Assembly: GCA_030390025.1 (NCBI GenBank)
Contig: JASTWF010000034.1
Location: 1,674,001 to 1,738,000, forward strand
Reading direction: 5' to 3'
Length of the DNA stretch: 64,000 bases
Source of the DNA: Squalus acanthias
Lineage: Eukaryota
In this document: positions 12,001 through 45,289 of the stretch, in pieces
Layout: each line of letters begins with the position of its first letter
How positions within the stretch are numbered: position 1 is the first letter of the stretch
Translations under genes and position numbers: made by a program
The notes under the pieces: generated by a model
The model's database searches: none
What the model was told of the DNA's origin: nothing
What the model saw: the letters and a program-made list of their open reading frames with translations, nothing else

Positions 12001-12740
12001 ATCTAAGCAGTGCTATACCTGCCCTTGGACTGAATGACTGGGCAGTGTAAAGGGAGCTTTACTCTGTATCTCTCGATCTAACCGGTGCTGTACCTGCCCT
12101 TGGACTGTTTGATTGGGCAGTGTAAAGGGAGCTTTACTCTGTATCTCTCTTTCTAACCCGTGCATTACCTGCCCTTGGACTGTTTGATTGGGCAGTGCAA
12201 AGGGAGCTTTACTCTGTATCCCTCTATCTCACCCGTGCTGTACCTGCCCTTGGACTGTTTGATTGGACAGTTTAAAGGGAGCTTTATTGCGTATCTCTCT
12301 CTCTAACCCGTACTGTACCTGCCCTTGGACTGTTTGATTGGGCAGTGTAAAGGGAGCTTTACTCTGTATCTCTCTATCTAACCCGTGCTATACCTGCCCT
12401 TGGAGTGTTTGATTGGGCAGTGTAAAGGGAGCTTTACTCTGTATCTCTCTATCTAACCCGTGCTATACCTGCCCTTGGACTATTTGATTGGGCAGTGTAA
12501 AGGGAGCTTTACTCTATCTCTCGATCTAACCGGTGCTATACCTGCACTTGGACTGTTTGATTGGGCAGTGTAAAGGGAGCTTTACTCTGTATCTCTCTAT
12601 CTTACCCGTGCTATACCTGCCCTTGGACTGTTTGATTGGGCAGTGTAAAGGGAGCTTTACTCTGTATCTCTCTAGCTAACCCGTGCTATACCTGCCCTTG
12701 GACTGTTTGATTGGGCAGTGTAAAGGGAGCTTTACTCTGT
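1..12740 (+). repeat. 75-bp tandem satellite array (~170 monomers, open at window start) with higher-order structure
   Basis: Monomer gggagctttactctgtatctctcgatctaaccggtgctatacctgcccttggactgtttgattgggcagtgtaaa repeats with a 75-bp period (e.g. 1, 76, 151). Recurrent 67-bp deletion variants are present. Confidence 0.98.
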
Positions 12741-12850
12741 GTATAACTTATGCTACATGCAGGAAGATTGTGACAAATGGAATTCAATCCGGAGAAGTGT
12801 GAGGTAATGCATTTGGGGAGGGCTAACAAGTCAACGGATCCTACACTGAG
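12741..12850 (+). mobile_element. Short degenerate CR1 ORF2 fragment abutting the satellite
   Basis: caaatggaattcaatccggagaagtgtgaggtaatgcattt encodes QMEFNPEKCEVMHL, the CR1 RT thumb motif. Confidence 0.75.
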
Positions 12851-13890
12851 GAACATAGGAAGAGGAGTCGGCCATTTAGCCCCTCGAGCCTGTTGCCCCA
12901 TTCAATGCGATCATTGACTGATCTGCGATCTAACTCCATAAACCCACCTTTGGCCCATATCCCTTCATACCTTTGGTTAACAAAAAGCAATAAATCTCCG
13001 ATTTAAAATTAACAATTTATCTCGCATCCACTTCCGTTTGTGGAAGAGAGTTCCAAATTTCTCCCACTTTGTGTGTCGAAGTGTTTCCAAATTTCACTCC
13101 TGAAAGGACTGCCTCTAATTCTTAGACTGTGCCTCCAGTCTTAGTATCCCCACCAATAGAATTAGTTTCTCGCTATCTACTCTATCTGTTCCCCTTAATA
13201 TCCTGAAAACTTCGCTCAGATCAGCCCTTAACCTTCTAAATTCTAGGGAATAGAACCCTAATCTCTCCTCGTAACTTAATCCTTGAAGTCTGGGTATCAT
13301 TCTGATATCCCTGTGCTGCACTCCCTCCAAGGCCAATATATCCTTCCTAAGGTGTGGTGCCCAGAACTGCTCACAGTACTCCAGGTGTGGTCTAACCAGG
13401 GTTTTGTATAGCTGCAGAATAACTTCTACCCCCTTGTAATCTAGTCCTTTAGATATAAAGACCAGCTTTCCATTAGCCTTTTTGATTATTTTCTGTACCT
13501 GTCCATGACATTTTAATGATCTATGTACCTGGACCCCCCAAGTCTCTTTGGACATCCACTCTTTTTAGCTTTTCTCCATTTAGAAAGTAACCTGTTCTTT
13601 CCTTTTAGGGTCCAAAGTGATTGACCTCACATTTGCTTACATTGAAATCCATTTGCCATAGTTTTGCCCATTCCCTTAATCTGTCAAAATCCCTTTGTAA
13701 TTTTATGGTTTCACCTACACTGCCTATAATGCTGCCTATCTTTGTGTCATCGGCACATTTGGGTATATGTCTTTCTATGACATCACCGAAGTCATTAATA
13801 AATATTGTGAATAGCTGAGGCCACAAAACACAGCCCTGCCGGACACCAGGAGTCACATCCTGCCAATTTGAGTACCGACCCATCATCCCT
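12851..13890 (-). mobile_element. CR1 LINE 3' fragment (RT C-terminus + 3' UTR), decayed
   Basis: ORFs 13605-13886 (degenerate [17 protein letters not shown]) and 13115-13555 (LYKTLVRPHLEYCEQFWAP). CR1 tail aacataggaagaggagtcggccatt. Confidence 0.93.
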
Positions 13891-19299: not shown

Positions 19300-19472
19300 C
19301 TGCCCCGGGGGGATTGGGAGGGGCTTGGCCACTTTAACATTTTTCCAGGCTGCTCTTTGATTGGATCCCTGCTCCTGTGTGATGTCACTTGGAAACAGGG
19401 CCCCGCCCCTGGTTACGGCCCATCAGTGGGATGTCAGTGTGGGAGGAGCTGGAGTGTCCGCTGACACTGGGA
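19300..19472 (+). promoter_or_regulatory. Module copy A: promoter-like segment and short exon 1
   Basis: Two inverted CCAAT (attgg), CRE-like tgatgtca and GC box ccccgcccc, followed by donor GA|GTGAGT at 19473. The core is shared with 3 other copies. Confidence 0.55.
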
Positions 19473-19657
19473 GTGAGTTTAGTCCCAATAAACAGGGCAA
19501 AGGGCTGAAAGGAACAATTGAATAGTAATGTAAGTAATTCAAATACACATTAATTGCAAATATAATGAAATTAGATACAATCCCAGTCACAAAAACAGCC
19601 CCACTGTATTCCAGGTACAGGATCTGGGATTAATATGAATCATTTTTCTATTGACAG

Positions 19658-19828
19658 TCTCTGGGAGAGAGCAATATCTCAGGAAGGTGGAGAGAGAGAA
19701 GTCGAATCATCGCCTCACTGACTGGGACTGGAGAAATGTCGCTGGTTTCACAGAGCAGATCTGGTGGGACCGAGACCTCCCGTGTCGGAGACGGGATAAA
19801 ACGGGAAGCTTCAACAATGATTGGAAAG
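19658..19828 (+). other. Module copy A: 171-bp exon 2 of an unidentified multicopy gene (possible start MSLVSQSRSGG...STMIGK)
   Basis: Acceptor ttttctattgacag, donor AAG|GTGAGG. Same length in three paralogues. Confidence 0.6.
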
Positions 19829-19959
19829 GTGAGGAACTTTACTGAGAATTGCACCAGTCCAGGATTCTGCCGAGGTGAGAGTCTAACCAGATACTGGGAG
19901 CTGTTCAACATCTGCCGTCAGGCTCGGCCTTTGATGTGGCAAGTTGAGCGGAGCTTAAC

Positions 19960-21080
19960 TCGGAGATAAACCTTGCCCGTACCTCACCCGGGAGTGTTTG
20001 ACACTTGCATGTAGTGAAATCTTTATTCTGTATTGACCCCATGCTGTACCCGAGCTGGTTGTGCTTCATTGGGTAGTGTCAAGGGAACTGTACGCTGCAT
20101 TGAACATATGATGTATCAGAGTTGGTTGTGTTGATGAACCAAATTGGAGGAGCTTTACTCTGGATCGAACCCGTGCTGTACCTGCCCTGGGAGTGTTTGA
20201 TGGGACAGTGCAGAGGGAGCTAACTCTGTATCTAACCCGTGCTGTCCCTGCCCTGGGAATGTTTGGTGGGGCAGTGTAGAGGGAGCTTTACTCTGTATCT
20301 AACCCGTGCTGTACCTGCCCTGTGAGAGTTTTCTGGACAGTGTAGAGGGAGCTTTACTATGTATCTAACCCGTGCTGCACCTGCCCTGGGAGTCTTTGAT
20401 GGGACAGTGTAGAGGGAGCTTTACTCTGTATCTAACCCGTGCTGTAACTGCCCTGGGAGTGTTTGATGGGACAGTGTAGAGGGAGTTTACTTTTTATCTA
20501 ACCCGTGCTGTACCTGCCTTGGGACTGTTTCGTGGGCAGTGTAGAGGGAGCTTTACTTTGAATTTAACCTGTGCTGTACCTGCCGTGGGAGTGTTTGATG
20601 GGACAGTGTAGAGGGAGCTTTACTTTGTATCCAACCCACTGTACCTGTCCTGGGAGTGTTTGATGGGACAGTGTAGAGGGAGCTTTACTTTGTATCTAAC
20701 CCGTGGTGTACCTGCCCTGGGAGTGTTTGATGGGACAGTGTAGAGGGAGCTTTACTTTGTATCTAACCCATGCTGTTCCTGCCCTGGGAGTGTTTGGTGG
20801 GGCAGTGTAGAGGGAGCTTTACTCTGTATCTAATCCGTGCTGTACCTGCCCTGGGAGTGTTTGGTGGGGCAGTGTAGTGGGAGCTTTACTTTTTATCTAA
20901 CCCGTGCTGTACCTGCCCTGGGAATGTTAGGTGGGCAGTGTAGAGGGAGCTTTACTCTGTATCTAATCCGTGGTGTACCTGCCCTGGGACTGTTTGGTGG
21001 GGCAGCGTAGATCAGCTGAACTGTGTATCTAACCCACTGTACCTGCTCTGGAGGTATTTGATGAGAGCTTTACTCTGTAA
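19960..21080 (+). repeat. 67-bp satellite array
   Basis: gggagctttactctgtatctaacccgtgctgtacctgccctgggagtgtttgatgggacagtgtaga, period 67 (20347 to 20414). Confidence 0.95.
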
Positions 21081-21084
21081 CAGG

Positions 21085-22122
21085 GGATTACATGGGGTAT
21101 ACAGCACAGAACCAGGCCATTCGACCCAAACAGTCCATGCCAGCGTTTATGCTCCACTCGAGCCTCCTCCCGTCTTACCTCATCTAATTGTATCAGCGTA
21201 ACCGTCAATTCCCTTCTCCCACATATGCTTATCTAACTGCCCCTTAAATGTATCAATACTATTCGCTTCAACCACTCCCTGTGGTAGGGAGTTCCACATT
21301 CTCACCACTCTCTGGGTAAAGAGGTTTCTTCTGAATTCCCTTATTGATTTATTGGTGATACCTTATATTGATGGCCTCTAATTTTGCTCTTCCCCACAAG
21401 TGGAAACATTCTGTCTGTATCCACTCCATCAAAACCTTTCCTCATTTTAAAGAGCTTTATCAGGTCACCCCTCAGCCTTCAAGAGAAAGGAGACCCAACG
21501 TTTTCATCCGTTCCTGATATGTATTTTGTTTTATTCGTTTAAGGGATCTGGGCGCCGCTGGCAAGGCCAGCATTTATTGCCCATTCCGAGTTGCCCTTGA
21601 GAAGGTGGTGGTGAGCCGCCTTCTTGAACCGCTGCAGTCCGTGTGGTGATGGTACTCCCACAGTGCTGTTAGGTAGGGAGTTCCAGGATTTTAACCCAGC
21701 GACGATGAAGGATCGGCGACATACTTCGAAGTCACCCTAGTTTTTCTGGTATTATCCATGTAAATCTTCTCTGCACCCTCTCCAGTGCCTCTATCCTTTT
21801 TAGAATACAGCGACCAGAACTGTACACAGTTTTCCAAGTGTGGTCCAACCAAGGTTCATTACAAGTTTAGCATAAATTCACTACTTTTCAATTCTACCTT
21901 TCCAGATATAAACCCGAGTGATTGGTTTGCTTTTTATGGCCTTATTAACCTGTGTCGCTACTTTCAGTGATTTGTGTATTTGCACTCCGAGATTCCTTTG
22001 CTCCTCTATCCCATTTAGATTCTTATTTTCCAAGTAATATGTGACCTCTCTACTTTTCTTACCAAAATGTAACTCCTCAGGTTCATCTGTGTTAAATTTC
22101 ATTTGCCAATTATATGGCCATT
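21085..22122 (-). mobile_element. CR1 3' fragment with a nested 3' tail of a second LINE family (21525-21735)
   Basis: Minus-strand MKFNTD..LHFGKK..LGVQIHKSLK. The inserted ttattcgt..gggatctgggcgccgctggcaaggccagcatttattgccc tail is also seen at 35690 and 42200. Confidence 0.85.
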
Positions 22123-22381
22123 AAAGAGCTATTAGAAATAGATAATAAATAATATCAATCAGTAATGCAAATCTATGACTTTAATTATAATATTTACGCC
22201 TCTGGTGCCTCTCTCTCTCAATCCCTCTCCCTCAGAATTATAAAATGTCTCTTTGACGATAACAGGCCATTCGGCCCAACCAGTCCATGCCATATTCCAG
22301 GTCACCAAGCCACTGGGATCTGCCTGAGAGGACAAAGATGGTTATTGTGTCAGCCTGTAGTCCAGGCTCCATTCAGCAGGC

Positions 22382-22625
22382 GAGAATCAGGCTAACTCAG
22401 CACAGGCCGGGGATGGAGCCTGGGCCTTTCCTGCTCTGTGTGTGGGGGTCACAGTCCCTCACCGGGTGAGAATCAGGCTAACTCAGCACAGGCCGGGGAT
22501 GGAGCCTGGGCCTTTCCTGCTCTTTGTGTGGGGGTCACAGTCCCTCACCGGGGGAGATCAGGCTAACTCAGCACAGGCCGGGGATGGAGCCTGGGTCTTT
22601 CCTGCTCTGTGTGTGGGGGATCTCA
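22382..22625 (-). repeat. ~86-bp tandem repeat x3 in the PEX5 pseudogene intron, resembling a tRNA-SINE head
   Basis: atcaggctaactcagcacaggccggggatggagcctggg at 22386, 22472 and 22557. The reverse complement has a B-box-like cccaggctccatcccc. Confidence 0.75.
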
Positions 22626-23060
22626 GAAACCACTCCGGGAGGGGACATTTCAGGGGTGGTCACCCATCATTGTGTGGGTCTAATTGCCACCTCACTCTCT
22701 TGCAGTTAGTCTCGGAGTTCGTGACTGAGCAGAATGGCCCGCTGCTGCCCCGCGCACCCCACACGTTCAAGATGGACGACCTGCTGGCGGAGATGCAGGA
22801 GGTTGAGAACTGAAGGCTTTGACATGCTTAGCAGCGAGGTAAGATCACCCCATGGAGCAGAGGGTCAAATCAGCACAGGCTGGTGATGGAGACTGGGTGT
22901 TTCCTGCCCAGATTCGGGCCCTGTTTTCACACCCCAAGCCCCCGTTGTGGCAGACCTGGCGATGTCGGGGACCTGGGTCGAGTTACTGGCCACCGAGCCG
23001 ACGGCAGACACATCGCAGGCCGACAGTGAAGCCGATTGGTCAATGGAGTTCATCGCGGGC

Positions 23061-24750
23061 CACTCAGCATTGTGGGTACTGCGTCACTGAGCCCGGGCAT
23101 TGTGGGCACAGGATCATTGACACTGAGCATTGTGGGTACAGTGCCACTGACCCCGGGCATTGTAGGTACAGAGTCACTGACACTGGGCATTGTGTGGACA
23201 GAGTCACTGATCCCGGGCATTTTGGGTACAGAGTCACTGACACTGGGCATTGTGGGTACAGAGTCACTGACACTGAGCATTGTGGGTACAGAGTCACTGA
23301 GCCCGGGCATTGTGGGCACAGGATCATTGACACTGGGCATTGTGGGTACAGGGCCACTGACCCCGGGAATTGTGGGCACCGGATCATTGACACTGGGCAT
23401 TGTGGGTACAGAGTCAATGTCAGTGGGCATTGTTGGTACAGGGTCACTGACACTGGGCATTGTGGGTACAGCGTCACTGACCCCGGGAATTGTGGGTACA
23501 GAGTCACTGACACTGGGCATTGTGGGTACAGGGCCACTGACACTGGGCATTGTGGGTACAGTGCCACTGACACTGGGCATTCTGGGTACAGGGCCACTGA
23601 CACTGGGCATTGTGGATACAGGGCCACTGACCCCGGGCATTGTGGGTACAGAATCACTGACACTGGGCATTGTGGGTACAGGATCACTGACACTTGGCAT
23701 TGTGGGTACAGAGTCACTGACCCTGGGCATTGTGGGTACAGTCACTGACCCTGGGCATTGTGGGTACAGGATCACTGACACTGGGCATTGTGGGTACAGG
23801 GCCACTTACACTGGGCATTGTGGACACAGGGTCATTGACACTGGGCATTGTGGGTACAGAGTCACTGACACTGGGCATTGTGGGTACAGGGCCACTTACA
23901 CTGGGCATTGTGAGTACAGTCACTGAACCTGGGCATTGTGGGTACAGGGCCACTGACAGTGGGCATTGTGGGTACAGAGTCACTGACCCCGGGCATTATG
24001 GACACAGGGCCACTGACCCTGGGCATTGTGGGTACAGAGTCACTGAACCTGGGCATTGTGGGTACAGGGTCACTGACCCCGGGCATTATGGACACAGGGC
24101 CACTGACCCTGGGCATTGTGGGTACAGGGTCACTGATCCTGGGCATTGTGGGTACAGAGTCACTGACCCCGGGCATTATGGACACAGGGCCACTGACCCT
24201 GGGCATTGTGGGTACAGAGTCACTGAACCTGGGCATTGTGGGTACAGGGTCACTGACCCCGGGCATTATGGACACAGGGCCACTGACCCTGGGCATTGTG
24301 GGTACAGGGTCACTGACCCTGGGCATTGTGGGTATAGGGTCACTAACCCCGGGCATTATAGACACAGGGCCACTGACCCTGGGCATTGTGGGTACAGGGC
24401 CACTGACCCCGGGCATTGTGGGTACAGGTTCATTGACCCTGGGCATTGTGGGTACAGGGCCACTGACCCTGGGCATTGTGGGTACAGGGCCACTGACCCT
24501 GGGCAATGTGGGTACAGAGTCACTGAGACTGGGCATTGTGGGTATAGGGTCACTGACACTGGACATTGTGGGTACAGGGTCACTGCCCCTGGGCATTATG
24601 GGTACAGGGTCACTGCCCCTGGGCATTGTGAGTACAGAGTCACTGACCTCGGGCATTGTGGGTACAGGGACACTGACACTGGGCATTGTGCGTACAGTGT
24701 CACTGACACTGGGCATTGTAGGTACAGGGCCACTGACCCCGGGCATTATT
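23061..24750 (+). repeat. 30-bp minisatellite (~56 copies)
   Basis: cactgacactgggcattgtgggtacagagt with a 30-bp period; explains the long repetitive ORFs in all frames. Confidence 0.97.
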
Positions 24751-24904
24751 GAATCTTCCTCTACTCCTCGAACCCGCTGTGACCTGTCCAGCAAAGTGGA
24801 CCCTGGACTACCTGGAACAAACGGCAGAGGAACTGTGGCTGGGGAACCCGAGCTGGAGCAGAGTCAGTGCAGAAATCGTATGGAGCGGGAGGGAGTAACA
24901 GTGG

Positions 24905-25365
24905 TAATGTCAGGGTAATGTACAGGGAGCTCTGTATTATACCTGCTCAGGGTGTGCACGATGCTGACACTGGGTATAAAGTGGGGGTACACTGTCAGGG
25001 TAATGTAGAGGGAGCTCTGTACTGTACCTGCCCTGGGAGTGCACGTGGCTGACACTGGGTATAAAGTGGGGGTACACTTTCGGAGTAATGTTCAGGGAGC
25101 TCTGTATTGTACCTGCCCTGGGAGTGCTGGATGCTAACACTGGGTATAAAGTGGGGGTACACTCACCGGGTAATGTAGAGGGAGCTCTGTATTGTACCTG
25201 CCCTGGGAGTGCACGATGCTGACACTGGGTATAAAGTGGGGGTACACTCTCAGGGTAATGTAGAGGGAGCTCTGTATTGTATCTGCCCTGGGAGCACTCG
25301 ATGCTGACAATGGGTATAAAGTGGGGGTACATTTTCGGAGTAATGTCGAGGGAGCTCTGTATTCT
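24905..25365 (+). repeat. 85-bp tandem repeat (~5-6 copies), related to the 67-bp satellite
   Basis: gggagctctgtattgtacctgccctgggagtg... at 25095, 25180 and 25265. Confidence 0.9.
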
Positions 25366-25374
25366 AGAGTGGGA

Positions 25375-26672
25375 GAAGCATAGAAGATAGGAGCAGGAGT
25401 AGGCCATTCGGCCCCTCGAGTCTGCTCCGCCATTTATTGCGATCATGGCTGATCATCCAAATTCAGAACCCTGTCCCTGCTTTCTCCACATATCCCTTGA
25501 TCCCTTTAGCCTTAAGAAATACATCCAACTCTTTCTTGAATATATTTAATGAATTGGCCTCTACTGCCTTCTGTGGTAGAGAATTCTACAGGTTCACCAC
25601 TCTCTGGGTGAAGAAATTCCTCCTCATTTCTGTCCTAAATGTCTTACCCCTTATCCTTAGACTGTGACCCCTGGTTCTGGACTCCCCGACCATCGGGAAC
25701 ATCCTTCCTGCATCTAGTCTGTCCAGTCCTGTCAGAATTTTATAAGTTTCAATGAGATCCCCTCTCATTCTTCTAAACTCCAGCGAGTATAATCCAAATC
25801 GAACCAATCTCTCCTCATACGTCATTCCTGCCATCCCAGGTATCCGCGTGGTGAATCTTCGCTGAACTCCTTCCATGGCAAGAACCTCCTTCCTCAGATA
25901 AGGCAACCAAAACTGCTCACAATACTCAAGATGTGGTCTCACCAAGGCCCTGTACAACTGCAGCAAGACATCCTTGTTCCTGCACTCAAACCCTCTCGCT
26001 CCGAAGGCCAACATCCATTTGCCTTCTTAACCGCCTGCTGCACCTGCATGCTTACCTGCAGCGACTGGTGCACAAGGACACCCAGTTCTCGTTGCACTTC
26101 CCCTTCTCCCAATCTATTGCCATTCAGATAATAATCTGCCTTCCTGTTTTTGACACCAAAGTGGATAACCTCGCATTTATCCACGTTATATTGCATCTGC
26201 CATGCTTCTGCCCAATCATCCAACCTGTCCAAATCATCCTGGAGTTTCTCTGCATCCTCCTCACAGCACACACGCCCACCCAGCTTTGTGTCGTCTGCAA
26301 ACTTGGAATATTACATCTAGGTCCCTTGTCTAGATCATTTAATATATATTGTGAATAGCTGGGGTCCAAGGACCGATCCCTGCGGTACCCCACTAGTCAC
26401 TGCCTGCCACTCGGAAATAGACCCATTAATTCTTACTCTCTGCTTTCTGTCTGCCAACCAGTTCTCTATCCAAGTCAATACCTTGCCCCCCAATCCCATG
26501 TGCCTTAACTTTACACGCTAATCTCTTATGCGGGACCTTATCAAAAGCCTTTTGAAAGTCCAAATACACCACATCCACTGGTTCTCCCTTATCTATTTTA
26601 CCAGTTGCATCCTCAAAACATTCCAGTAGATTAGTCAAACACGATTTACCTTTTGTAAATCCATGTTGACTT
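25375..26672 (-). mobile_element. CR1 LINE 3' part (RT), decayed
   Basis: VDVVYLDFQKAFDKVPH, WQMQYNVDKCEVIHFG, LYRALVRPHLEYC. Tail ataggagcaggagtaggccattcggcccctcg. Confidence 0.95.
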
Positions 26673-27205
26673 TGGAGGGGCTATGGCCGCTTTGTGTCAT
26701 TATTCCCGGCTGCTGTGTGATTGGCTCCCGGTTCCTTTGTGATGTCACCTGGAGTCAGGTTTTCGACCCTGGTTACGGCCCATCAGTGGGATGTCGGTGT
26801 GGGAGGAGCTGGAGTGACAGCTGACACTGGCGGTGAGTTGAGTCAAATTAAATATAATCAGTCACAAAAACAGTCCCACTGTATTCCATTTACAGATTCT
26901 GGGATTAATATGAATGATTTTTCTATTGACAGTCTCTGGGAGTGAGCAATATCTCAGGAAGGTGGAGAGAGAGAAGTCGAATCATCGCCTCACTGACTGG
27001 GAATGGAGAAATGTCGTTGGGTTCACAGAGCAGATCCGGCGGGACCGAGATCCCCATTTTCGGAAAAGGGTTAAAACAGGAAGCTTCAACAATGATTGGA
27101 AAGGTGAGGAACTTTACTGAGAATCCCATCAGTCCAGGATTTTTCCAATGTGAGAGTCTAACCAGATACTGGGAGCTGGTCAACATCTCGCATCATGCTC
27201 GGCTG
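26673..27205 (+). other. Module copy B (promoter, exon 1 donor 26833, 100-bp intron, exon 2 26933-27103)
   Basis: Paralogous to 19330-19925; splice sites retained. Confidence 0.65.
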
Positions 27206-27594
27206 AACCAAATTAGTGGGAGCTTTACTCTGTCCGCCACCCATTCCGTGTCTGCCCAGAGAGTGTTTTGGGTGTCCATTGCAGAGGAAGCTTTATTTTG
27301 CATCTCTCTATCTTACCCGTGCTTTACCTGACCTTTGACTGTCTGATTGGGCAGTCTAATGGGAGCTTTAGTCTGTGTATAACGCATGATATATGCAGGA
27401 AGAAATCACTGGACTGGTCAGTTGTGCAGAAAAGGGGCAAATGGAATTCAATCTGGAGAATTGTGAGGTTATGCGTTTCGGAAGTGCTGACAAGGCAAGG
27501 GATCCCACAGTATCAGAGATTGTCAGATACAGAATGAATCGCAAACTCATACACCGCACCAGAGACTGCCAGAAACAGAATGAATCGCAAACTC

Positions 27595-28175
27595 ACACAG
27601 AGGGTGTCACAGAGTGGGTCTATACTTAGGGACTCCACAGAGGGTGTCACAGAGTGGGTCTATACTTAGGGACTCCACAGATGGAGTCACAGAGTGGGTC
27701 TGTACTTAGGGACTCCACAGATGGAGTCACAGAGTGGGTCTATATTTAGTGACTCCACAGGGTGAGTCACAGAGTGGGTCTATACTTAGGGACTCCACAG
27801 AGGGTGTCCCAGAGTGGGTCTATACTTAGGGACTCCACAGATGGAGTCACAGAGTGGGTCTATACTTAGGGACTCCACAGATGGAGTCACAGAGTGGGTC
27901 TATACTTAGGGACTCCACAGATGGGGTCACAGAGTGGGTCTGTACTTAGTGACTCCACAGATGGAGTCACAGAGTGGGTCTATACTTAGGGACTCCACAG
28001 GGGGAGTCACAGAGTGGGTCTATACTTAGGGACTCCACAGAGGGTGTCACAGAGTGGGTCTATACTTAGGGACTCCACAGATGGTGTCACAGAGTGGGTC
28101 TATACTTAGGGACTCCACAGATGGTGTCACAGAGTGGGTATATACTTAGGGACTCCACAGATGGATACACAGAGT
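27595..28175 (+). repeat. 40-bp minisatellite (~14 copies)
   Basis: cacagagtgggtctatacttagggactccacagatggagt with a 40-bp period. Confidence 0.96.
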
Positions 28176-28347
28176 CTTCTTAGGCAGTCCCTCGGAAACG
28201 AGGATGACTTGCTTCCACACTAAAAATGAGTTCTCAGGTGACTGATGAGTCCAATGTGGGACCTACAGTCTCTGTCACAGGTGGGGCAGACGGTCGTTGA
28301 AGGGACGGGTGTGTGGGGTGCTTGGGTTGACGTGCGCTCCTTACGTG
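28176..28347 (-). mobile_element. RTE-clade LINE 3' end
   Basis: The minus strand encodes a terminal zinc-finger-like CPTCDRDCRSHIGLISHLRTHF*, followed by tail gtggaagcaagtcatcctcgtttccgagggactgcctaagaa. Confidence 0.7.
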
Positions 28348-29975
28348 TCTGCACCGGCCATCAAGCCCTGTCTATTCCAAGACCATTTTCCAGCACTTGG
28401 TCCGTAGCCTTGTATGCTATGGCGTTTCAAGTGCTCATCTAAATGCTTCTTGAATGTTGTGGGCGTTCCTGCCTATACCACACTTTAAGGGAGTGAACTC
28501 CAGATTTCAACCACCCTCTGGGTGAAAAAGTTTTGCCTCAAATCCCCTCTAAACCTCCTGCCTCTTACCTTGACACTGTGCCCCCTGGTTATTGACCCCT
28601 CTACGAAGGGAAGAATTTCCTTTTTATCCACCCTAGCTATGCCCCTCATAATTTTGTACACCTCAATCAGTTCCCCCCTCAGCCTTCTCTGCTCTAAGGA
28701 AAACAACCCAATCCTGTCCAGTCTCTCTCCACTGCTGAAACGCTCCAGCCCAGGTAACATCCTGGTGAATCTCCTCTGCACCCTCTCCAATGCAATCACA
28801 TCCCTCCTATAGTGTGGTGACCAGAACTGCACACAGTATTCCAGCTGTGGCCTAACCAACGTTTTATACAGCTGCATCATAACCTCCCTGCTCTTATCTT
28901 CTATGACTCGGCTAATGAAGGCAAGTATCCAATATGCATTTTTAACCACCTTATCTACCTGTCCTGCTGCCTTCAGGGATCTATGTACATGCACGCCAAG
29001 GTCCCTCTGATCCTCTGTCCTTCCTAGGATCCTACCATTGTGTATTCCCTTGCCTTGTTTGTCCTCCCAAAATGCATCACCTCACACTTTTCTGGGTTAA
29101 ATTCCATTTGCCACTGTTCTGCCCATCTAACCATCCCGTCTATATCGTCCTGTAGTCTGAGGCTTCCCTCCTCGCTATTTACCGCTCCACCAATTTTCGT
29201 GTCATCTGCAAACTTACATTCTTATCTAAATCATTAATGTACACTACAAACAGCAAAGGACCCAGCACCGATCCCTGCGGTACACCACTGGACACTGGCT
29301 TCCAGTCACAAAAACAACCTTCGACCATCACCATCTGCCTCATGCCACTAAGCCAATTTTGAATCCAATGTGCCAAATTGCCCTGGATCCCATGGCCTCT
29401 TACCTTCTTGACCAGACTCCCATGTGGGACTTTATCAAAAGCCTTACTGAAGACCATGTAGACGACATCAACTGCACTATCGTCATCCACACACCTAGTC
29501 ACCACCTCAAAAAATTCAATCAAATTGGTTCGATATGATCTCCCCCTGACAAAGCCATGCTGACTATCACTGATTAATCCTTGCCTCTCCAAGTGGAGAC
29601 TAATTCTGTCCCTCAGAATTTTTCCAATAATTTCCCTATCACTGATGTTAGGCTCACTGGCCTGTAATTCTACTACCTTCTTGAACAATGGTACTACGTT
29701 AGCTGTTCTCCAGTCCTCTGGCACCTCCCCTGTGGTCAGAGAGGTTCTGAAAATTTGTGTCAGAGCCCCGGCAATCTCCTCCCTTGCCTCACACAGCAGC
29801 CTGGGATACATCCCGTCAGGGCCTGGGGATTTATCCACTTTTAAGTCCGCAAAAACCGCTAGTACCTCCTCCCTCTCAATACTAATTTGTTCAAGTATAT
29901 CACAATACCCCTGCCTGATTTCTATGCCAACATCGTCCTTCTCCACAGTGAACACAGATGCAAAATATTCATTTC
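28348..29975 (-). mobile_element. CR1 LINE ORF2 fragment
   Basis: ORFs 29179-29955 ([32 protein letters not shown]) and 28485-28994. Confidence 0.95.
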
Positions 29976-32013
29976 AGAGCTTTACTCTGTACCAAACATT
30001 GACTGAACCTGCCCTGGGATTTTTTGATGGGACAGTGTAGAGAGTTTTTCTCTGTATCTAACCCGTGCTGTACCTGCCCTGAGAGTGTTTGATGTTACAT
30101 TGTAGAGGGAGGTTCACTCTGTATCTACCCTGTGCTTTACCTGCCCTGGGAGAGTTTGATGGGACAGTGTAAACGGATCTTTAATCTGTATCTAATCCAT
30201 GCTGCACCTGCTTTGGGAGTGTTTGATGGGCCAGTGTTGATGCAACTTTACTTTGTGTCTAACTCGTGTTGTGCCTGTCTTGGAAGGGTTTGATGGGACA
30301 CTGTAGAGGCAGCTTTAGTCTGTATCTAACACATGCTGTACCTGCTCTGGGAGAGTTTGATGGGATAGTGTCGAGGGAGTTTTAATCTGTCTTACTGGTG
30401 TTCTGCATGTCCTGGATGGCTTTAATGGGACAGTGTCGAGAGAGCTTTACTCTATCAAACGTGGTCTGAACCTGCCCTGGGAGTGTTTTTCTGGGACAGT
30501 TCAGAGGGAGATTTACTCTATCTGACCTGTTCTGAACCTGCCCAGGCAGTGTTTGATGGAACAGTGTAGAGGGGTCTTTACTCTGTATCAAACGTGGACT
30601 GAACCTGCCATGGGAGTGTTTGATGGGACAGTGTAGAGGGAGCTTTACTCTGTATCTAACCGGTGCTGTCCCTCCCCTGGGGTTGTTTGATGGGACAGTG
30701 TAGAGGCAGCGTTACTCTGTATCTAACCCGTGCTGTACATGCCCTGGGAGTGTTTGATGGGACAGTGTAGAGGCAGCTTTACTCTGTATCTAACCCATGC
30801 TGTACATGCCCTGGGGGTGTTTGATGGGACAGTGTAGAGGAAGCTTTACTCTGTATCTAACCCGTGCTGTACCTGCCCTGACAGTGTTAAATTGGACAGT
30901 GTTGATGCAGCTTTACTCTGTGTCTAACTCGTGTTCTACCTGTCCTGGACGGGTTTGATGGGACAATGTAAAGGAAGTTTTACTCTGTATCTTAACCGTG
31001 TTGTACCTGCCATGGGGGAGTTTGATGGGACAGTATCGAGGGAGCTTTACTCTGTTGCTAACCACTGCTGTACATGACCTTTAAATGTTTGATGGGACAT
31101 TGTAGAGGGAGCTTTACTCTGTATCTAACCCATGCTGCCCATGCTGTTCCTGCCCTGGGATAGTTTGATGAGACAGTTTAGAGGGAGCTTTACTCTGTAT
31201 CTAACCCATGCTGCCCATGCTGTTCCTGCCCTGGGATAGTTTGATGAGACAGTTTAGAGGGAGCTTTACTCTGTATCTAACACATGCTGTACCTGCCCTG
31301 GGATTGTTTGATGTGACAGTGTAGTGAGACTTTTACTATTTACCAATCATTGTTTGAACCTGCCCTGGGAGTGTTGGATGGGACAATGCACAGGGAGATT
31401 TAGTCTGTATCTAACCAGTGCTGTATCCAAACAGTGCTGTACCTGCCCTGGCCGGGTTTGATGGGACAGTGTAGAGGGAGCTCTAAACTATATCAAACAT
31501 GGTCTGAACCTGCCAGGGGAGTATTTGATGGGACAATGCAGAGATGAACTTTGCTCCTTATCTAACCTGTGCTGTACCTGCCCTGTGAGAGTTTAATGGG
31601 ACAGTGTAGAGGGAACTTTACTCTGTGTCAAACGTATTCTTAACCTCCTGTGGTTGTGTTTGATGAGACAGTGTAGAGTGAGATTTACTCTGTTTCTAAC
31701 CTGTGTGAAAATGCCCTGGGTGGGTGGGTTTGATGGGACATTGAAGAGGGCACTTAACTCTGTAGGTAAATCGTGTTGTGCCTGTCCTGGGAGAGTTTGA
31801 GGGAAAAGTCTAGAGTCAGCTTTACCACTATCAAACATGGTCTCAACCTGTCCTGGGAGTGTTTCATGGGGCAGTGAAGAGGGAACTTTACTCTGCATCT
31901 AACCCGTGTTATACGTGTCCTGGGAGCGATTTGATTGAATAGTGTAGAGGGAGCTTTACTCTCTATCTAAACCGTGCTGTATCTGCACTTGGAGTGTTTG
32001 ATGGGACAGTGTA

Positions 32014-32317
32014 TCACAGAATCCCCACAGTGCAGATAGAGGCCATTTCGGCCCATCGAGACTGCACCGACACATATCCCACCCTATCCCCGTAACCCCA
32101 CATATTTAATCCCCCTAACACTAAGGGTCAATTTATCATAGCCAAATCAACCTAACCCGCACATCTTTGGACTGTGGGAGGAAACCGGAGCACCCGGAGG
32201 AAACCCACGCAGACACGGGGAGAATGTGCAAACTCCACACAGACAGTCACCCGAGGCCGGATTCGAACCCACTCCCTGGCGCTGTGAGGCAACAGTGCTA
32301 ACCACTATGCCACCGTG
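32014..32317 (-). mobile_element. V-SINE (HE1-type) with tRNA-derived head and CR1-like tail
   Basis: Minus strand cacggtggcatagtggttagcactg (A box), gggttcgaatcc (B box) and V domain ctgtgtggagtttgcacattctccccgtgtctgcgtgggtttcctccgggtgctccggtttcctccc. gtgta occurs at both junctions. Confidence 0.93.
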
Positions 32318-32478
32318 TAGAGGGATCTTTGCTCTGTATCTAACCTATGTTGTGCCTGTCCTGGACAGGTTTGATGGAACAGTGTAGAGGAAGCTTTACT
32401 CTGTATCTAACCCGTGTTGTGCCTGTCCTGGACAGGTTTGATGGAACAGTGTAGAGGAAGCTTTACTCTGTATCAAAC

Positions 32479-33118
32479 GGTATGTTGGCGTTCATTGCAA
32501 GAGGATTTGAGTACAGGAGCAAGAATGTCTTACTACAGTTATACAGGGCCTTGGTGGAACCACACCTGGTGTACTGTGTGCTGTTTTGGTCTCCCTACCT
32601 AAGAAAGGATATACTTGCCATAGATGGAGTGCAGCGAAGGTTCACCAGACTGTTTCCTGGGATGACAGGACTGTCGTTTTAGGAGAGGTTGGGTCGACTA
32701 GGCCTGTATTCACTAGAGATTAGAAGAAGGAGTGGGCATCTGATTGAAAGGTATAACATTCTGACAGTGCCAGACAGAGTGGATGCAGGGAGGATGTTTC
32801 CCCTGGCTGGGGTGTCTAGAACGAGGGGTCACAGTCTCAGGATACGGGGTAGGTCATTTAGGACTGAGATGAGGAGAAATATCTTGACTCAGAGGGTGGT
32901 GAACCTGTGGAATTCTCTACCACAGAGGCTGTGGTGTCCAAATCACTGAATATATTTAAGCAGGAGGTAGATAGGTTTCTAGACACAAAAGGCATCAAGG
33001 GGTATGGGGAGAGACCGGGAATTTGGTACTGAGATAGAGGAGCAGCCATGATCATGTTGAATGGCGGAGCAGGCTCGAAAGGCCGAATGGCCTACTCCTG
33101 CTCCTATTTTTCTATGTT
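32479..33118 (+). mobile_element. 5'-truncated CR1 inserted in satellite, TSD tcaaac
   Basis: LLQLYRALVEPHL..; tail cctgctcctatttttctatgtttc; tcaaac at 32473 and 33119. Confidence 0.92.
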
Positions 33119-34060
33119 TCAAACATGGACTGAACCTGACCTGAGGTCCTTTTATGGGACAGTGTAGAGGGAGCTTTACTCTGTATCTAACCCGTGCTGC
33201 ACCTGCCCTGGGAGTGTATCGTGGGACAGTTTAGAGGGAACTTTACTCTCTGTCAAACATGTTCTGAACATGCCCTGGGAGTGTTTGTTGGGACAGTGTA
33301 GAGGGGGCATTACTTTGTATCTAACCTGTGCTGAAAGTGCCCTGGGTGTGTTTGATGGGACATGGTAGAGGGAGCTTTATTCTGATTCTAATCCTTGATG
33401 TACTTGCCCTGGGAGTGTTTGATGGGATACTGTAGGGGGCGCTTTACTCTGTATCTTACCCATGCTGTACCTGCCCTGGGAGTGTTTGATGGGACAGTGC
33501 AGGGAGCGCTTTACTCTGTCTCTAACCAGTGTTGTACCTGCCCTGGGTGTGTTTGATGGGACAGTGTTGATGCAGCTTTATTCTGTGTCTAACTCGTGAT
33601 CAGCCTGTCCTGGACGGGTTTTGAAGGGACAGTGCAGGGGGAGCTCTACCCTGTATCAAACATGGTCTGAACTAGCCATGGGAGTGTTTGATGGGACCGT
33701 GCAGAGATGAGCTTTACTCTGTATCTAACCCGTGCTGTACCTGCCCTGTGAGAGTTTGCTGGGACAGTGTAGAGGGACCTTTACTCTGTATCTAACCTGT
33801 GCTGTACCTGCCCTGAGAGTGTTTGATGGGTCAGTGTAGAGGGACCTTTACTCTGTATCTAACCTGTGCTGTACCTGCCCTGTGAGAGTTTGTTGGGCCA
33901 GTGTAGAGGGACCTTTACTCTGTATCTAACCTTTGCTGAAACTGCCCTGGGAGTGTTTGATGGGACAGTGCTGAGGGAGGTTTACACTGTGTCTAAGTCG
34001 TGTTGTGCCTGTCCTGGGAGAGTTTGATGGGGCAGTGTTGGGGTAGATTTACTCTGCCTC

Positions 34061-35105
34061 TGACCTATTCTGCCCAATTGGTTTGTGCCGGTGTTTATTC
34101 CCCACACAAGCCTCCTCTCACCCCTCTTCATCTAATTCTATTAGCATAACCTTATATTCCTTTCTCCCTCATGTGTTTATCTAGCTTCTCCTTAAATGCA
34201 TCTGTGCTATCCGCCTCCACTACTCCCTGTGGTAGTGAGTTCCACATTCTCAACTCTCTTTGGGTGAAGAATTTATCCTGAATTCTCCATTGGATTTATT
34301 AGTGACTATCTTCTATTGATGATCTCCAGTTTTGGACTCCCACAAGTGGAAACATTTTCTCCACGACCACCTTTATAACCTTCTCATAATCTTAAAGACC
34401 TCTATCCGGTCATCCATCAGCATTCTCTTTCTTCAAGAGAAAAGAGACCCAGCCTGTTCAGCCTTTCCTGATAAGTATATCCTCTCAGTTCTAGGATCAT
34501 CCTTACAAATCTCCTTCTCCAGTGCCTCTATATTAAGAACATAAGAAATAAGAGCAGGAGTAGGCCATTGGGCCCCTCGTAATAATATGGAGACCAGAGC
34601 TTTTCACAGTACTCCAAGTATGATCTAACCCAGGGTCAGTGCAAGTTTAACATAACCTCCCTGCTTTGCAATTCTATCCCTCTGGAAATGAACTCCGGTG
34701 CTTTTTGTTTTGTATGGCCCTATTAACCTCCATTGGTACTTTTAGTGTTCTGTGTATCTGTACCCCGAAATCGCATTGCCCCTCTACCCCATTTATACTC
34801 TTATTTTCAAAGCAGTATCTGACCTCCTTATTCTTCCTACCAAAAGGCGCCACCTCACACTTATCTATATTGGAAATTCATTCGCCATTTACACTTCCAT
34901 TCTGCAAGTTTATTAATGTCTTCTTGCATTATGTCACAGTCTTCATCAGTAGTAACTGTACCTCCCAATTTGGTATCATTGACAAATTTTGAAATTGTAC
35001 TTCAAATTCCCGAGTAGAAATTGTTTATGTAAATTGTGAACAGCAGCGGTCCCAGCATCGATTCCTGTGGAACACCACTTTCAACCTTTTGCCAGTCTGG
35101 AAAGC
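34061..35105 (-). mobile_element. Degenerate CR1 3' fragment
   Basis: Minus-strand WQKVESGVPQESMLGPLLFTIYIN plus CR1 3' UTR sequence. Confidence 0.85.
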
Positions 35106-35687
35106 TGCTCTCTGTTTTGTGGAATTCAATGGCGGTGTGTTTACCCACGATCCCCCGCGCGGCAGAAAGTGCCCAATCAATGACTACAGGAGTCCAGTGC
35201 GCAGGCGTGAGACCGGGGAGTGCTCCGAGCATGCGCAGTACGAGTCGTGCAGACGAGGCAATGGCGGCAGCAGGAACATAGCGGGCAGAGAAACGTTAAC
35301 AACGTTTCTGGACGCTAACTTCGTCAGAGCATTTCCTGTTGTACTAATGGCCTAACAAACGATTCCAGAGCCGGCAGGAGATTCTGGGGGCCGGGGAGGA
35401 ACAGGCGGCGCGTGGTCTGGGAAGCTTCACAAACACCCGGCCTAGGCCTCAGGCCCCGAATAAAACCCCGCGGGGCCTCGTGTTTGCGCCGCAGCGCCAG
35501 GCCCGGCCGCGCGGGGCGACTCTCCGCCAACTTGCTGAAGGCTTTCTCCCCGCCGACAGGCCCGGGTTACCCCGGCAACCGGCCGCCATCTTTGTGAAGG
35601 AAGGCGGGACTTTTCCCCGCGCCGCCATGTTGGACAGGGCGGGGTCAGGGCGCATACGCGGCCCTCAGTGCAACTGCAGCAGAAGCA
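35106..35687. promoter_or_regulatory. CpG-rich promoter-like island
   Basis: Dense CpG; CCAAT 35173; NRF1-like tgcgcaggcg / gcatgcgcag; YY1-like atggcggc (35261) and gccgccatctt / gccgccatgtt (35582, 35621); GC box 35637. Confidence 0.55.
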
Positions 35688-36150
35688 CTTTTTTATTATT
35701 CGTTTATGGGATGTGAGGGTCGCTGGCAAGGCCAGCATTTATTGCCTATCCCTAACTGCCCTTGAGAAGGTGGTGGTGAGCTGCCTTCTTGAACCGCTGC
35801 AGACGATTGGTAGGGAGTTCCAGGATTTTCAAGCAGCAACGAGGAAGGATAGGCGATATACTTCCAAGTCAGGATGGTGTGTGACTTCGAGGGGAACCTG
35901 GAGGTGGTGGGGTTCCCATGCGTCTGCTGCCCTTGTCCTTCTAGGTGGAAGAGATTGCGGGTTTGGGTGGTGCTGGCGAAGATGTCTTGGCGAGTTGCTG
36001 CAGTGCATCTTGTAGATGGTACACACTGCAGCCACGGTACGCCAGTGGTGGAGGGAGTGAATGTGTAAGGTGATGGATAGGTTGTCAATCAAGCGGGCTG
36101 CTTTGTCCTGGATGGTGTCGAGCTTCTTGAGAGTTGTTGGAGCAGTACGC
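35688..36150 (-). mobile_element. 3' end of a second CR1-group LINE family
   Basis: TTLKKLDTIQDKAARLI..HSLHHWRTVAAVCTIYKMHCSN; same tail as 21525 and 42200. Confidence 0.85.
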
Positions 36151-36169
36151 ATCATATGAGGGGAGCGGG

Positions 36170-36558
36170 GTCGGAGACGAGTATGATTGTACACCCTGTG
36201 TACATGCCCAGTGAGAAAGCACACCAGGAGCAGAGCCTGGTCAATGTGACCCTGTGACCCTCGAGTGGGAGGGGCTCCGGCCGCTTTGTGACATTGCTCC
36301 TTGCTGCTGTGTGATGACACCTGGAGACACTGCCCCGCCCCTGGTTACGGCCCATCAGTGGGATGTCAGTGTGGGAGGAGCTGGAGTGACAGCTGACACT
36401 GGGAGTGAGTTTTCACAATAAACAGGGCAATGGACAGAATAGAACAATACAATAATAAAGTTAGTAATTCAAACATTCATTAATTGCAAAAATAGTCACA
36501 TTGAATATAAATTTGGTCACAAAAATGCACCCCCCCCCCCCTGTATTCTGGGATTAAT
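36170..36558 (+). other. Module copy D (promoter + exon 1, donor 36405; truncated in intron 1)
   Basis: Near-identical to 37065-37445; ends at an L2 fragment before exon 2. Confidence 0.65.
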
Positions 36559-36825
36559 GGCTTCGGTCTTCCCAATATTTACTTGGAGAAACTTTTGCTC
36601 ATGTCAGTCAAGCAGTCTGACAATTTAGACACCGTGGAGGGGTCGAGAGAAGAGGTAGTGAGGTAGAGCTGGGTGTCGTCAGCGTACATGTGGAAACTGA
36701 CTGTGTTTCTGGATGATGTCACCAAGGGGCAACATGTAGATGAGAAATAGGAGGGGAGGCAAGGAGAGATCCTTGGGGGACACCAGAGGTAACGATGTGG
36801 GAGCGGGAAGAGAGACTGACTGATA
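36559..36825 (-). mobile_element. L2 LINE RT fragment
   Basis: FHMYADDTQLYLTTSSLDPSTVSKLSDCL on the minus strand. Confidence 0.85.
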
Positions 36826-37064
36826 TTCTGGTCTTTTCCGCACAGTATGATCCCAGCCCCAGACGGATCCCTCACTGTGGAGAGAGAGAGAGCGACAGAG
36901 ACAGTGAGGGAGCAGATACGTAGAGAAGAAAATAAATACTGGGGTAGAGTTTGACGTTTAGTAGGTGCTATAGTACAAACCGGGTAATTGTGAATCAGCC
37001 ACCCATTTTGCACCGATGAAATAAAACTCGGTAGAGATGCAGGGCAGGATCCCGGTTCAATCCC

Positions 37065-37920
37065 GGAGACGGGGCTGATTGTACACCCTGTGTTCATGCC
37101 CAGTGAGACTGCACACCAGGAGCAGAGCCTGGTCAATGTGACCCTGTGTCACCACGAGTGGGAGGGGCACCGGCCGCTTTGTGACATCGTTCCTAGCTGC
37201 TGTGTGATGTCACCTGGAGACAGGGCCCCGCCCCTAGTTACAGCCCATCAGTGGGATGTCGGTGTGGGAGGAGCTGGAGTGACAGGTGACACAGGGAGTG
37301 AGTTTAGTCCCAATAAACAGGGCAATGGACAGAAAAGAACTATTCAATATTAAAGTAAGTAATTCAAACACACTGATTAATTGCAAAAATAATCAAATTG
37401 AATATATTTGTGGTCACAAAAATGCTCCCCCTGTATTCTGGAATTAATATTTATCATTTTTCTATTGACAGTCTCTGGGAGTGAGCAATATCTCAGGAAG
37501 GTGGAGAGAGAGAAGTCGAATCATCGCCTCCCTGACTGGGACTGCAGAAATGTCGCTGGGTTCACAGAGCAGATCTGGTGGGATCGAGAACCCCAGTGTC
37601 GGAGACGGGATAAAACGGGAAGATTCAACAATGATTGGAAAGGTGAGGAACTGTACTGAGAATCCCATCAGTCCAGGATTTTGCTGAGGTCAGAGTCTAA
37701 CCAGATACTGGGAGCTGTTCAACATCTGCCGTCAGGCTCGGCCTTTGATGTGGCAAGTTGAGCGGAGCTTAACTCGGAGATAAATCTTGCCCGTACCTCA
37801 CCCGGGAGTGTTTGACACTTGCATGTACTGAGATCTTTATTCTGTATTCATCCCATGCTGTACCCGAGCTTGTTGTGCTTCATTGGCTCGTGTCAAGGGA
37901 GCTGTACGCTGCACATGCTG
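37065..37920 (+). other. Module copy C (promoter, exon 1 donor 37298, exon 2 37472-37642, start of intron 2)
   Basis: Paralogous to 19330-20100, including the sequence downstream of exon 2. Confidence 0.68.
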
Positions 37921-38056
37921 TATTAGAGGGAGCTTTGCATGTCACCCGCGCTGTACCTGCTCTGCGAGTGTTTGAGTGGACAGTGCAGAGGAAGGTTTAG
38001 TCTGTATCTCTCGATCTAACCCGTGCTGTACCTGCCCTTGGACTGTTTGATTGGGC

Positions 38057-38398
38057 CCCATTCAATGCGATCATTGACTGATCTGCGATCTGACTGCATA
38101 AACCCACCTTTGGCCCATATCCCTTCATAACTTTGGTTAACAAAAAGCAATAAATCTCCGATTTAAAATTAACAATTTATCTAGCATCAATTGCCGTTTG
38201 TGGAAGAGAGTTCCAAATTTCTCTCACTTTGTGTCGAAGTGTTTCCTAATTTTACTCCTGAAAGGACTGCCTCTAATTCTTAGACTGTGCCTCCAGTCCT
38301 AGTATCCCCACCAATGGAAATAGTTTCTCGCTATCTACTCTATCTGTTCCCCTTAATATCCTGAAAACTTCGCTCAGATCAGCCCTTAACCTTCTACA
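38057..38398 (-). mobile_element. CR1 3' UTR fragment, duplicate of 12896-13240
   Basis: Near-identical text ccattcaatgcgatcattgactgatctgcgatc...cccttaaccttcta. Confidence 0.88.
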
Positions 38399-45036: not shown

Positions 45037-45289
45037 GTAAGTCTCTCTATCCAGCTATTCTGTTAACCATGTTTTACTGTATTACTGTTCGTGTCATTTA
45101 CTCTCCCCTCCTTGCTGCGGTTGTTGTTCTGGCAAGTCTCTCTGTCCAGCTGTTAACCCTGCAAACCTTTGCTAACTGTATTACTATTCTTCATTCTTTG
45201 CTGCTGTTGGTGTCCTTGGTAAGTCTCTCTATATCCAGAAATTAGATCTGTAAACCACGTTTCACTGTATTACTGTTTTTGTCATTTAA

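Follow-up and report, generated by a model that had tools for sequence, protein, structure and literature searches.

A stretch of 64,000 nucleotides of the Squalus acanthias genome (contig JASTWF010000034.1, positions 1,674,001 to 1,738,000), hereafter the window, holds four copies of a unit with upstream motifs, a candidate first exon and, in three of them, an exon of 171 nt. The question was whether these are the starts of ordinary genes, since a sequence-only reading had taken them for the 5' end of a large tandem multigene family copied as a transcription-competent cassette. The copies and their exons are as follows:

19314..20099, + strand: copy A, with upstream motifs, candidate exon 1, intron 1, the 171-nt exon and the start of intron 2; 89.5% identical to copy C over 731 bp
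19418..19472, + strand: candidate exon 1 of copy A; its 3' end is a predicted GTGAGT donor and its 5' start is approximate
19658..19828, + strand: 171-nt exon of copy A, with an alternative donor 46 nt further on (19874)
26671..27203, + strand: copy B, with the 5' end cut by an antisense LINE and intron 1 shortened
26933..27103, + strand: 171-nt exon of copy B, flanked by the common acceptor and donor
36172..36558, + strand: copy D, limited to the upstream part and candidate exon 1 and stopping within intron 1; 88% identical to copy C over 392 bp
37064..37913, + strand: copy C, the reference stretch for the alignment of RNA contigs
37472..37642, + strand: 171-nt exon of copy C, with head-to-tail joints 37642 to 37472 and 37688 to 37472

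The claim of four paralogous copies was correct, with pairwise identities of 82-90% among A, B, C and D (E down to 0) and all four on the + strand. The intact copies A, B and C are spaced 7.3 and 10.5 kb apart, all inside 18 kb. The 171-nt exon, its splice sites and the lengths of intron 1 (185 nt in A, 100 nt in B, 174 nt in C) were also as described; the window contains the acceptor TTTTCTATTGACAG exactly three times, and likewise the donor AAG|GTGAGG, and the exon-1 donors are located at 19472 (A), 26832 (B), 36404 (D) and 37297 (C). The reported CRE-like site was found in all four copies and the GC box in A, C and D only, 10-20 nt behind the CRE-like site. These motifs are not evidence for a promoter, because the copies have them in common by descent and a loose CRE-like pattern occurs 14 times in the window when both strands are counted. 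A CpG island lies at 35150-35680. Candidate exon 1 and exon nucleotides 1-75 have 11 variable columns out of 130, against 35 of 187 in the introns (Fisher p 0.014, from three related copies), which fits a constrained 5' region. Within the 171-nt exon itself, 4 of the 75 columns before an ATG at position 76 are variable, compared with 15 of 96 after it (p 0.048). The exon of copy A folds no more strongly than its shuffles (z -0.48), and a search of Rfam gave no match within the window.

Tandem repeats make up 57% of the first 40 kb of the window, and the repeats and flanks bearing on the extent of the unit are:

1..13238, + strand: array of 171 copies of a 75-bp unit, with the flank on its 3' side
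20149..21063, + strand: 67-bp satellite array in intron 2 of copy A, 13.8 copies, with an inverted partner at 14229-16062 (83% over 913 bp)
27204..27520, + strand: flank of copy B, about two satellite monomers, then homology to the end of the 75-bp array and to the stretch after 12740
37944..38396, + strand: flank of copy C, satellite monomers followed by a 344-bp stretch that is 95.6% identical to 12895-13238

The statement that each complete copy runs into satellite holds for the long array behind A, whereas B and C are followed by about two degenerate monomers and then by LINE-type sequence. Homology to 12500-13238 is found in the flanks of both B and C, and the satellite belongs to the duplicated unit and is not a chance encounter of each copy. 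The array at 1..13238 probably derives from a fifth copy, as its intron 2 in expanded form, and this copy would start upstream of the window. Because the satellite and LINE-type sequence were duplicated along with it, the unit is not a bounded cassette.

Transcription was assessed with RNA contigs aligned to copy C alone. The contigs came from four of ten matching runs (X1, X2, X5 and X8); the other six, with shares of 0.05-0.20, were left out. X8 is on record as RNA from a random-primed library and X1, X2 and X5 were taken to be RNA by guess; the species of a run may differ from that of the window, and the contigs give neither strand nor ends nor a reliable level. The 171-nt exon was covered in all four runs, with many sequence variants: contigs at least 99% like copy C numbered 11 of 64, 19 of 80, 13 of 122 and 0 of 5 aligned, by run, and the common allele at one exon position was carried by 8, 10 and 20 contigs. 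Because the exon is covered by so many variants, the family is transcribed and is larger than this window shows, in agreement with the proposed multi-copy family. The predicted splicing at the exon's own sites was likewise observed, at the level of the family rather than of each named copy. The main joint listed links the donor of the 171-nt exon to its own acceptor, on GT/AG sites with a 2-nt overlap (X1, X2 and X5, from two studies). In X8, from a third study, a head-to-tail joint starts from the donor at +46 (37688 to 37472 in copy C coordinates). In X1 the upstream exon end of the joint is a diverged variant (three contigs, agreement 0.76), compatible with a linear or a circular reading, and no single contig spans two different named copies. 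Other loose ends enter or exit at the same splice sites with partners outside the window, and three loose ends had no match in the window. Three further joints, skipping 73, 71 and 87 nt, were set aside as noise, each being from one contig and lacking GT..AG ends. A genomic 171-bp tandem repeat is an unlikely source of the main joint, given the use of a second donor, a junction to a PEX5 exon and run sizes of 80-137 million letters.

The PEX5 fragment reported downstream of copy A was found and consists of these remnants:

22301..22336, + strand: PEX5-like mini-exon, interrupted by an in-frame stop and lacking a GT where the donor is expected; visual comparison with P0004, missed by tblastn
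22706..22838, + strand: PEX5 pseudo-exon containing LVSEF, with three in-frame stops from 22811; its acceptor is joined to the 171-nt exon in RNA
22939..23057, + strand: next PEX5 pseudo-exon, 81% over 42 aa to P0004
24770..24844, + strand: further PEX5 pseudo-exon remnant, 72% over 25 aa (E 2e-7)

The source of these exons (22301-24844) is PEX5, as judged from 72-86% amino-acid identity to the proteins of Heptranchias perlo (XP_067837825.1) and Scyliorhinus torazame (GCB80702.1). In contrast to PEX5 itself, the window has remnants of four exons that retain introns but contain stops and have lost splice sites, and lacks the first coding exon and the TPR part; a PDB search with two PEX5 pieces gave no match. 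The predicted splice from the donor of the 171-nt exon into the PEX5 exon at 22706 is present in one contig of one run (X8 record 29, 272 nt, depth 6.9), which supplies the fusion transcript expected of a duplication core. The exon part of this contig is the final 31 nt, which match copy A throughout and differ from copy C at a single nucleotide, and its loose end matches 22706-22735 at 29 of 30 nt (one mismatch). At a position that is leucine in both shark PEX5 proteins, the contig has a codon for valine, as does the pseudogene. The forecast of splicing partners was thus right as to the PEX5 exon, but the commonest upstream partner, the exon's own donor, was unforeseen.

Because the exon in RNA joins itself and a PEX5 copy, the unit looks like a duplication that makes repeat and fusion RNAs, not like four ordinary gene starts. 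The best explanation, to which we give about an even chance, is a transcribed segmental-duplication core with an exon that splices to whichever acceptor comes next, in another copy or in a captured pseudogene exon. Its parts would be the 171-nt exon with strong splice sites, a short upstream intron, the candidate first exon and a downstream intron bearing satellite. It was duplicated together with its introns and flanks and lies in a mosaic with other gene fragments; the DNA shows that it was spread by duplication at the DNA level and then fragmented by LINE insertions. Transcripts crossing such a region contain the exon and join its donor to whichever usable acceptor follows, as seen in the contigs for the family as a whole. 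With the original downstream exons absent from this region, the acceptor would mostly belong to another copy of the exon, which would give linear RNAs of several tandem 171-nt units; the junction is observed and the linear form is presumed. In the one fusion contig the acceptor is instead that of a captured pseudogene exon, in the PEX5 fragment that follows copy A. Most probably the RNAs are non-coding, either by-products or akin to lncRNAs, and the lower 5' variation together with two open reading frames through the exon is a hint of constraint beyond what a mere by-product needs.

The same head-to-tail joint would arise if each copy were back-spliced into a single-exon circle of 171 nt (217 nt from the alternative donor), a reaction favoured by satellite or LINE sequences paired in inverted orientation in the flanks. 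We regard this, the main rival, as possible but doubtful as the main source. Back-splicing would join a donor to an acceptor lying upstream of it, at canonical sites, as seen in four runs, with the X8 library random-primed, and inverted repeats lie within 6 kb of all three exons (A, 83% over 913 bp; B and C, 78% over about 635 bp), although inverted pairs as strong as that of B and C also turn up at 40% of 52 control positions across the window. Circles of this size do occur in a shark, since the three most abundant listed for bamboo shark liver measure 177, 177 and 170 nt (PMC7759564). These resemble the putative circle of the 171-nt exon in size, GT-AG junctions and shark host; two primers from that paper had no match in the window. 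The three intact same-strand copies provide a co-linear reading of the joint, and circle candidates with such an explanation are routinely set aside (PMC4132752). Linear tandem-exon RNA and a circle explain the joint equally well, and the contigs cannot separate them.

The length of 171 nt is a multiple of three, and frames 0 and 2 are free of stops in A, B and C, both head to tail and in the order A-B-C; two open frames occur in 13 of 5000 shuffles, in a test chosen after the pattern was seen. Tandem-spliced exons, or a circle read repeatedly, could accordingly encode a protein of 57-residue repeats, and rolling-circle translation is on record (PMC9242994). This is very unlikely: pN/pS among A, B and C is 0.5-2.7 over the three frames, with 9-15 differences per pair, a purifying signal is absent from all frames, and expressed variants carry single-base deletions at 37589 and 37584 and a 2-nt insertion at 37503. 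Nor did protein searches find such a repeat protein. Frame 0 of copy C gave 43 candidates among proteins of 101-2000 aa, none at E 10 or better, and a frame 2 alignment search gave 17, none accepted (short proteins being outside its scope). In the ESM Atlas the best score was 0.79 for frame 0, with nothing for frame 2; Pfam returned nothing under E 0.09 for seven exon peptides. A 24-mer motif scan of metagenome and viral contigs yielded no occurrence, and a 20-mer scan yielded 10 loci, with likeness limited to the motif at every one. A frame 0 profile run against 1.84 billion representatives gave two metagenome hits, a 70-residue repeat protein and a beta-propeller-like protein, both judged to be chance. 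The collection searched with frame 0 does include shark proteins.

The gene-head interpretation holds that the promoter, a non-coding exon 1 and a start-codon exon 2 belong to a large coding family, such as shark NLRs, with orphan heads here and intact members elsewhere. It agrees with the lower variation of exon 1 and of the exon before its ATG and the higher variation behind it, with the 31 codons that this ATG opens up to a phase-0 donor, with contig depth in X5 that climbs over exon 1 and drops past its donor, and with the expanded NLRP-related family of sharks (PMC8455134). Against it, the predicted exon 1 to exon 2 junction (e.g. 19472-19658) is absent from the five joints listed (19 of 58 loose ends being listed), and no listed downstream loose end was identified as a gene body. 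Searches of 130 of the 131 ORFs of at least 80 aa in the window, which miss exons under 80 codons, gave no NACHT, CARD, LRR or zinc-finger match, and frame 0 has no true relative among the representatives or the 101-2000 aa proteins searched, although the collection includes proteins of sharks. The guess of an NLR or other gene body therefore found nothing in the window and no protein relative; the exon peptide had no hit to an NLR N-terminus in the protein searches, though a diverged 31-residue N-terminus could escape them. We consider a gene head unlikely as the present state of the unit, yet it can be its origin even with a duplication core as its present behaviour. A solo LTR or a non-autonomous element with internal splice sites is suggested by the copy number, promoter-like motifs and an AATAAA shortly behind the exon-1 donor. 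The copy ends, read by eye, differ and have no shared termini or target-site duplications, homology continues into the satellite and LINE flanks, and the only element domains in the window are those of LINEs. LTR features were not found in the window, and a transposable element is extremely improbable.

The transcribed duplication core would matter because an expressed repeat-exon family escapes protein-based annotation and is a clean test case of circular RNA versus tandem-exon splicing; its importance is modest if the RNA products are by-products only. A bolder view, which we think decidedly unlikely, is that sharks carry an abundant undescribed RNA family of a self-joining 171-nt exon, which as a concatemer or a circle has an ATG with a stop-free frame and could be translated into 57-residue repeats, and which serves as a portable start codon plus donor framing captured fragments such as PEX5 and so as a standing source of chimeric genes. 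The listings from a literature search included no description of the 171-nt exon family.

Among known systems, the lncRNA FIRRE (PMC4820808, PMC5910558) resembles the unit in having a locally repeated exon (RRD in FIRRE), probably non-coding RNA and non-co-linear junctions, a likeness of organisation that implies no relation in sequence. FIRRE is one locus with a shown function and circles tested with RNase R, whereas the 171-nt exon also fuses to pseudogene exons, and its self-junction in the contigs may reflect several exon copies in one linear transcript. Compared with the primate core duplicons LCR16a/NPIP (PMC7419210) and HYDIN2 (PMC5345166), the shark unit is only about 1 kb, has no protein identified and has its own copy as the main partner seen. 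The protein and positive selection known for LCR16a have as their counterpart no relative found and a pN/pS that, on few differences, is close to 1 or higher, while transcriptional activity was found for the family. Common to both are a transcribed duplicated unit beside partial gene duplications, and fusion transcripts in which the reading frame is seldom kept. The locus is thus a concrete, testable case from a cartilaginous fish of duplication-driven fusion transcription, otherwise known mostly from primates.

Four paralogous copies of the duplicated unit, 82-90% identical to one another, were located at the positions reported in the sequence-only reading, which had described them as promoter-exon 1-exon 2 gene heads of a multigene family:

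Copy A: 19314-20099, plus strand, with 171-nt exon
Copy B: 26671-27203, plus strand, with 171-nt exon
Copy D: 36172-36558, plus strand, partial
Copy C: 37064-37913, plus strand, with 171-nt exon

The exon length given in that reading was confirmed in A, B, and C, its stated acceptor and donor each occurring exactly three times in the window, as were the intron 1 lengths of 185, 100, and 174 nt, respectively. All four copies carry the CRE-like site, and the GC box is confined to A, C, and D; because these motifs came along with the duplicated unit and a loose CRE-like pattern turns up 14 times within the window, they are not evidence for a promoter. The upstream regions of all four copies were CpG-poor (observed/expected 0.25-0.56). 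The window's sole CpG island (~35150-35680, observed/expected 0.85-0.97), which lies 500 bp upstream of copy D and carries one NRF1-like and two YY1-like motifs, could act as the promoter of read-through into C or of a minus-strand gene. At 36852-36940, just upstream of C, AATAAA signals come after an acceptor-like site; contig cover there is low in three runs, and the stretch is possibly the last exon of another transcript.

Satellite had been described behind each complete copy; a long array does lie behind A, whereas B and C have about two monomers each, of the 75-bp variant. This variant of the 67-bp satellite also fills 1-12740 (171 copies, 90% match). Behind their monomers, the flanks of B and C were homologous to the end of this 12.7-kb array and its non-repetitive flank (38055-38396 behind C was 95.6% identical to 12895-13238; the B flank aligned to 12560-12856), so the duplicated unit includes intron 2 with satellite of variable length, the satellite being part of the unit. 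We infer that a fifth copy probably starts upstream of the window and has this large array as its intron 2. Arrays of the 67-bp satellite at 14229-16062 and 20149-21063 flank copy A in opposite orientation and are 83% identical over 913 bp, and LINE fragments at 28345-29974 and 49711-51353 are 87% identical over 1665 bp. An ATG-started, exon-like frame of 46 codons at 44898-45040 ends at a GTAAG donor and is partially repeated at 45195-45288; we took it to resemble the first exon of expanded shark GPR139-like receptors, an identity for which Pfam gave no support. High tandem-repeat content is described for parts of shark genomes (PMC10620051).

Part of copy C was present in ten runs from three studies (shares 0.05-0.26), three of the ten being on record as RNA. 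Four runs, X1, X2, X5, and X8 (the last on record as RNA), were aligned to 36790-37930 at 82% likeness using assembled contigs only (64, 80, 122, and 5, respectively). Over the exon, summed contig depth greatly exceeded that of its surroundings (X1: 305-1028 over the exon versus 0-17 upstream and 56-146 downstream), which is a hint only, as depth of this kind cannot rank parts of a gene. Some contigs, such as one of 416 nt in X1 with 17 differences, cross intron 1 unspliced and show that precursor RNA or DNA is also present. Contigs at least 99% alike to C numbered 11, 19, 13, and 0, and the common allele at one position was carried by up to 20 contigs; many variants are therefore expressed. 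Two of the five joints listed were at splice sites. One runs head-to-tail, back 171 nt from the exon donor to its own acceptor, and was found in X1, X2, and X5 (two studies) at depths of 247.5, 75.3, and 40.2; the other, found in X8, starts at a second donor that lies 46 nt inside intron 2 and spans 217 nt backwards. The predicted junction of exon 1 to the 171-nt exon was not among these five, the listing taking in 19 of 58 loose ends and stopping short of a further 251 pieces. Further loose ends at the exon's splice sites have, among the matches listed, partners outside the window. In one X1 contig the loose end just upstream of the exon agrees at all but two positions with the LINE end 36039-36068; about four extra letters stand at the join, a tentative junction. 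A donor-like site lies in the antisense LINE end at 36039-36075. At the family level, the 171-nt exon is transcribed, its acceptor and two donors are used, and a head-to-tail junction is formed.

Downstream of A, four PEX5 exon remnants with their introns span 22301-24844. The exon at 22706 is 86% identical to shark PEX5 (E 2e-10), with in-frame stops from 22811; its best two matches were shark proteins (86%), and the remaining 28 matched at 77-82%, the named ones being from reptiles and birds, which points to a shark as the host. Two other remnants showed 72-81% identity. The PEX5-like mini-exon at 22301, compared with the PEX5 protein P0004, has one stop and no GT at the expected donor, which would explain RNA skipping straight to 22706. 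The predicted splice from the 171-nt exon to the PEX5 exon at 22706 was recovered in one X8 contig, in which the 171-nt exon's final 31 nt, in copy-A form, are followed by a match to 22706-22735 (29/30 nt). The contig retains the pseudogene's valine codon, which is leucine in both shark PEX5 proteins, and therefore derives from this PEX5 copy, from an allele of it, or from a sister duplicate; the functional gene is not its source. The exon ATG stays in frame across the junction, with 66 codons predicted to the first stop.

We consider it an even chance that long transcripts would cross the duplicated region and include the 171-nt exon, whose donor would splice to the next acceptor, either another copy of the exon or a captured pseudogene exon. 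The main rival, that the head-to-tail joint marks a 171-nt circle, is a weaker but serious contender: the most abundant circles listed for bamboo shark liver measure 170-177 nt (PMC7759564), although non-co-linear junctions with a co-linear duplication explanation are normally rejected as circle candidates (PMC4132752), and the inverted repeats around the exons were equalled at 40% of 52 control positions. Linear copy-to-copy splicing and circles are compatible, and both may occur.

That the copies are orphan heads of a coding family seems rather improbable, and that the exon is a translated repeat much more so. Neither frame 0 nor frame 2 has a stop in A, B, or C, both stay open when the copies are joined end-to-start or in the order A-B-C, and two open frames arose in 13 of 5000 shuffles, a test chosen after the pattern was seen. 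Against coding, pN/pS was 0.5-2.7, no frame lying clearly under 1 (9-15 differences per pair among A, B, and C), frameshifting variants occur among expressed contigs, and protein searches found no relative. Variable columns were fewer in exon 1 plus exon nt 1-75 (11/130) than in introns (35/187; p 0.014, among related copies), which was counted as some constraint on the 5' region and would agree with an origin in the 5' end of a real gene family; the evidence neither favours nor contradicts the guess that this was an NLR family. Least probable of all is a transposon. The copies have no shared termini or target-site duplications and their ends, read by eye, differ, and, apart from one weak and unrelated match, Pfam comparison of 130 of the 131 ORFs of at least 80 aa outside the arrays returned only LINE domains (reverse transcriptase, endonuclease, esterase); on this evidence the unit spread by DNA-level duplication with its flanks, not as a bounded mobile cassette.

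The 171-nt exon family is thus real, expressed, and duplicated, with an unforeseen self-junction and one pseudogene fusion. No account of it was found in the published literature by a search that reached few subscription papers and no bamboo shark circRNA list; the shark instance appears undescribed, the kind of system already known. The repeated exon recalls FIRRE (PMC4820808, PMC5910558). Primate core duplicons (PMC7419210, PMC5345166) are transcribed, lie beside other partial duplications, and yield fusion RNAs seldom in frame; the shark unit is likewise an expressed duplicated unit adjoining a partial duplication and forming a fusion RNA, and would count as a core duplicon if over-represented genome-wide, the property by which core duplicons are defined.
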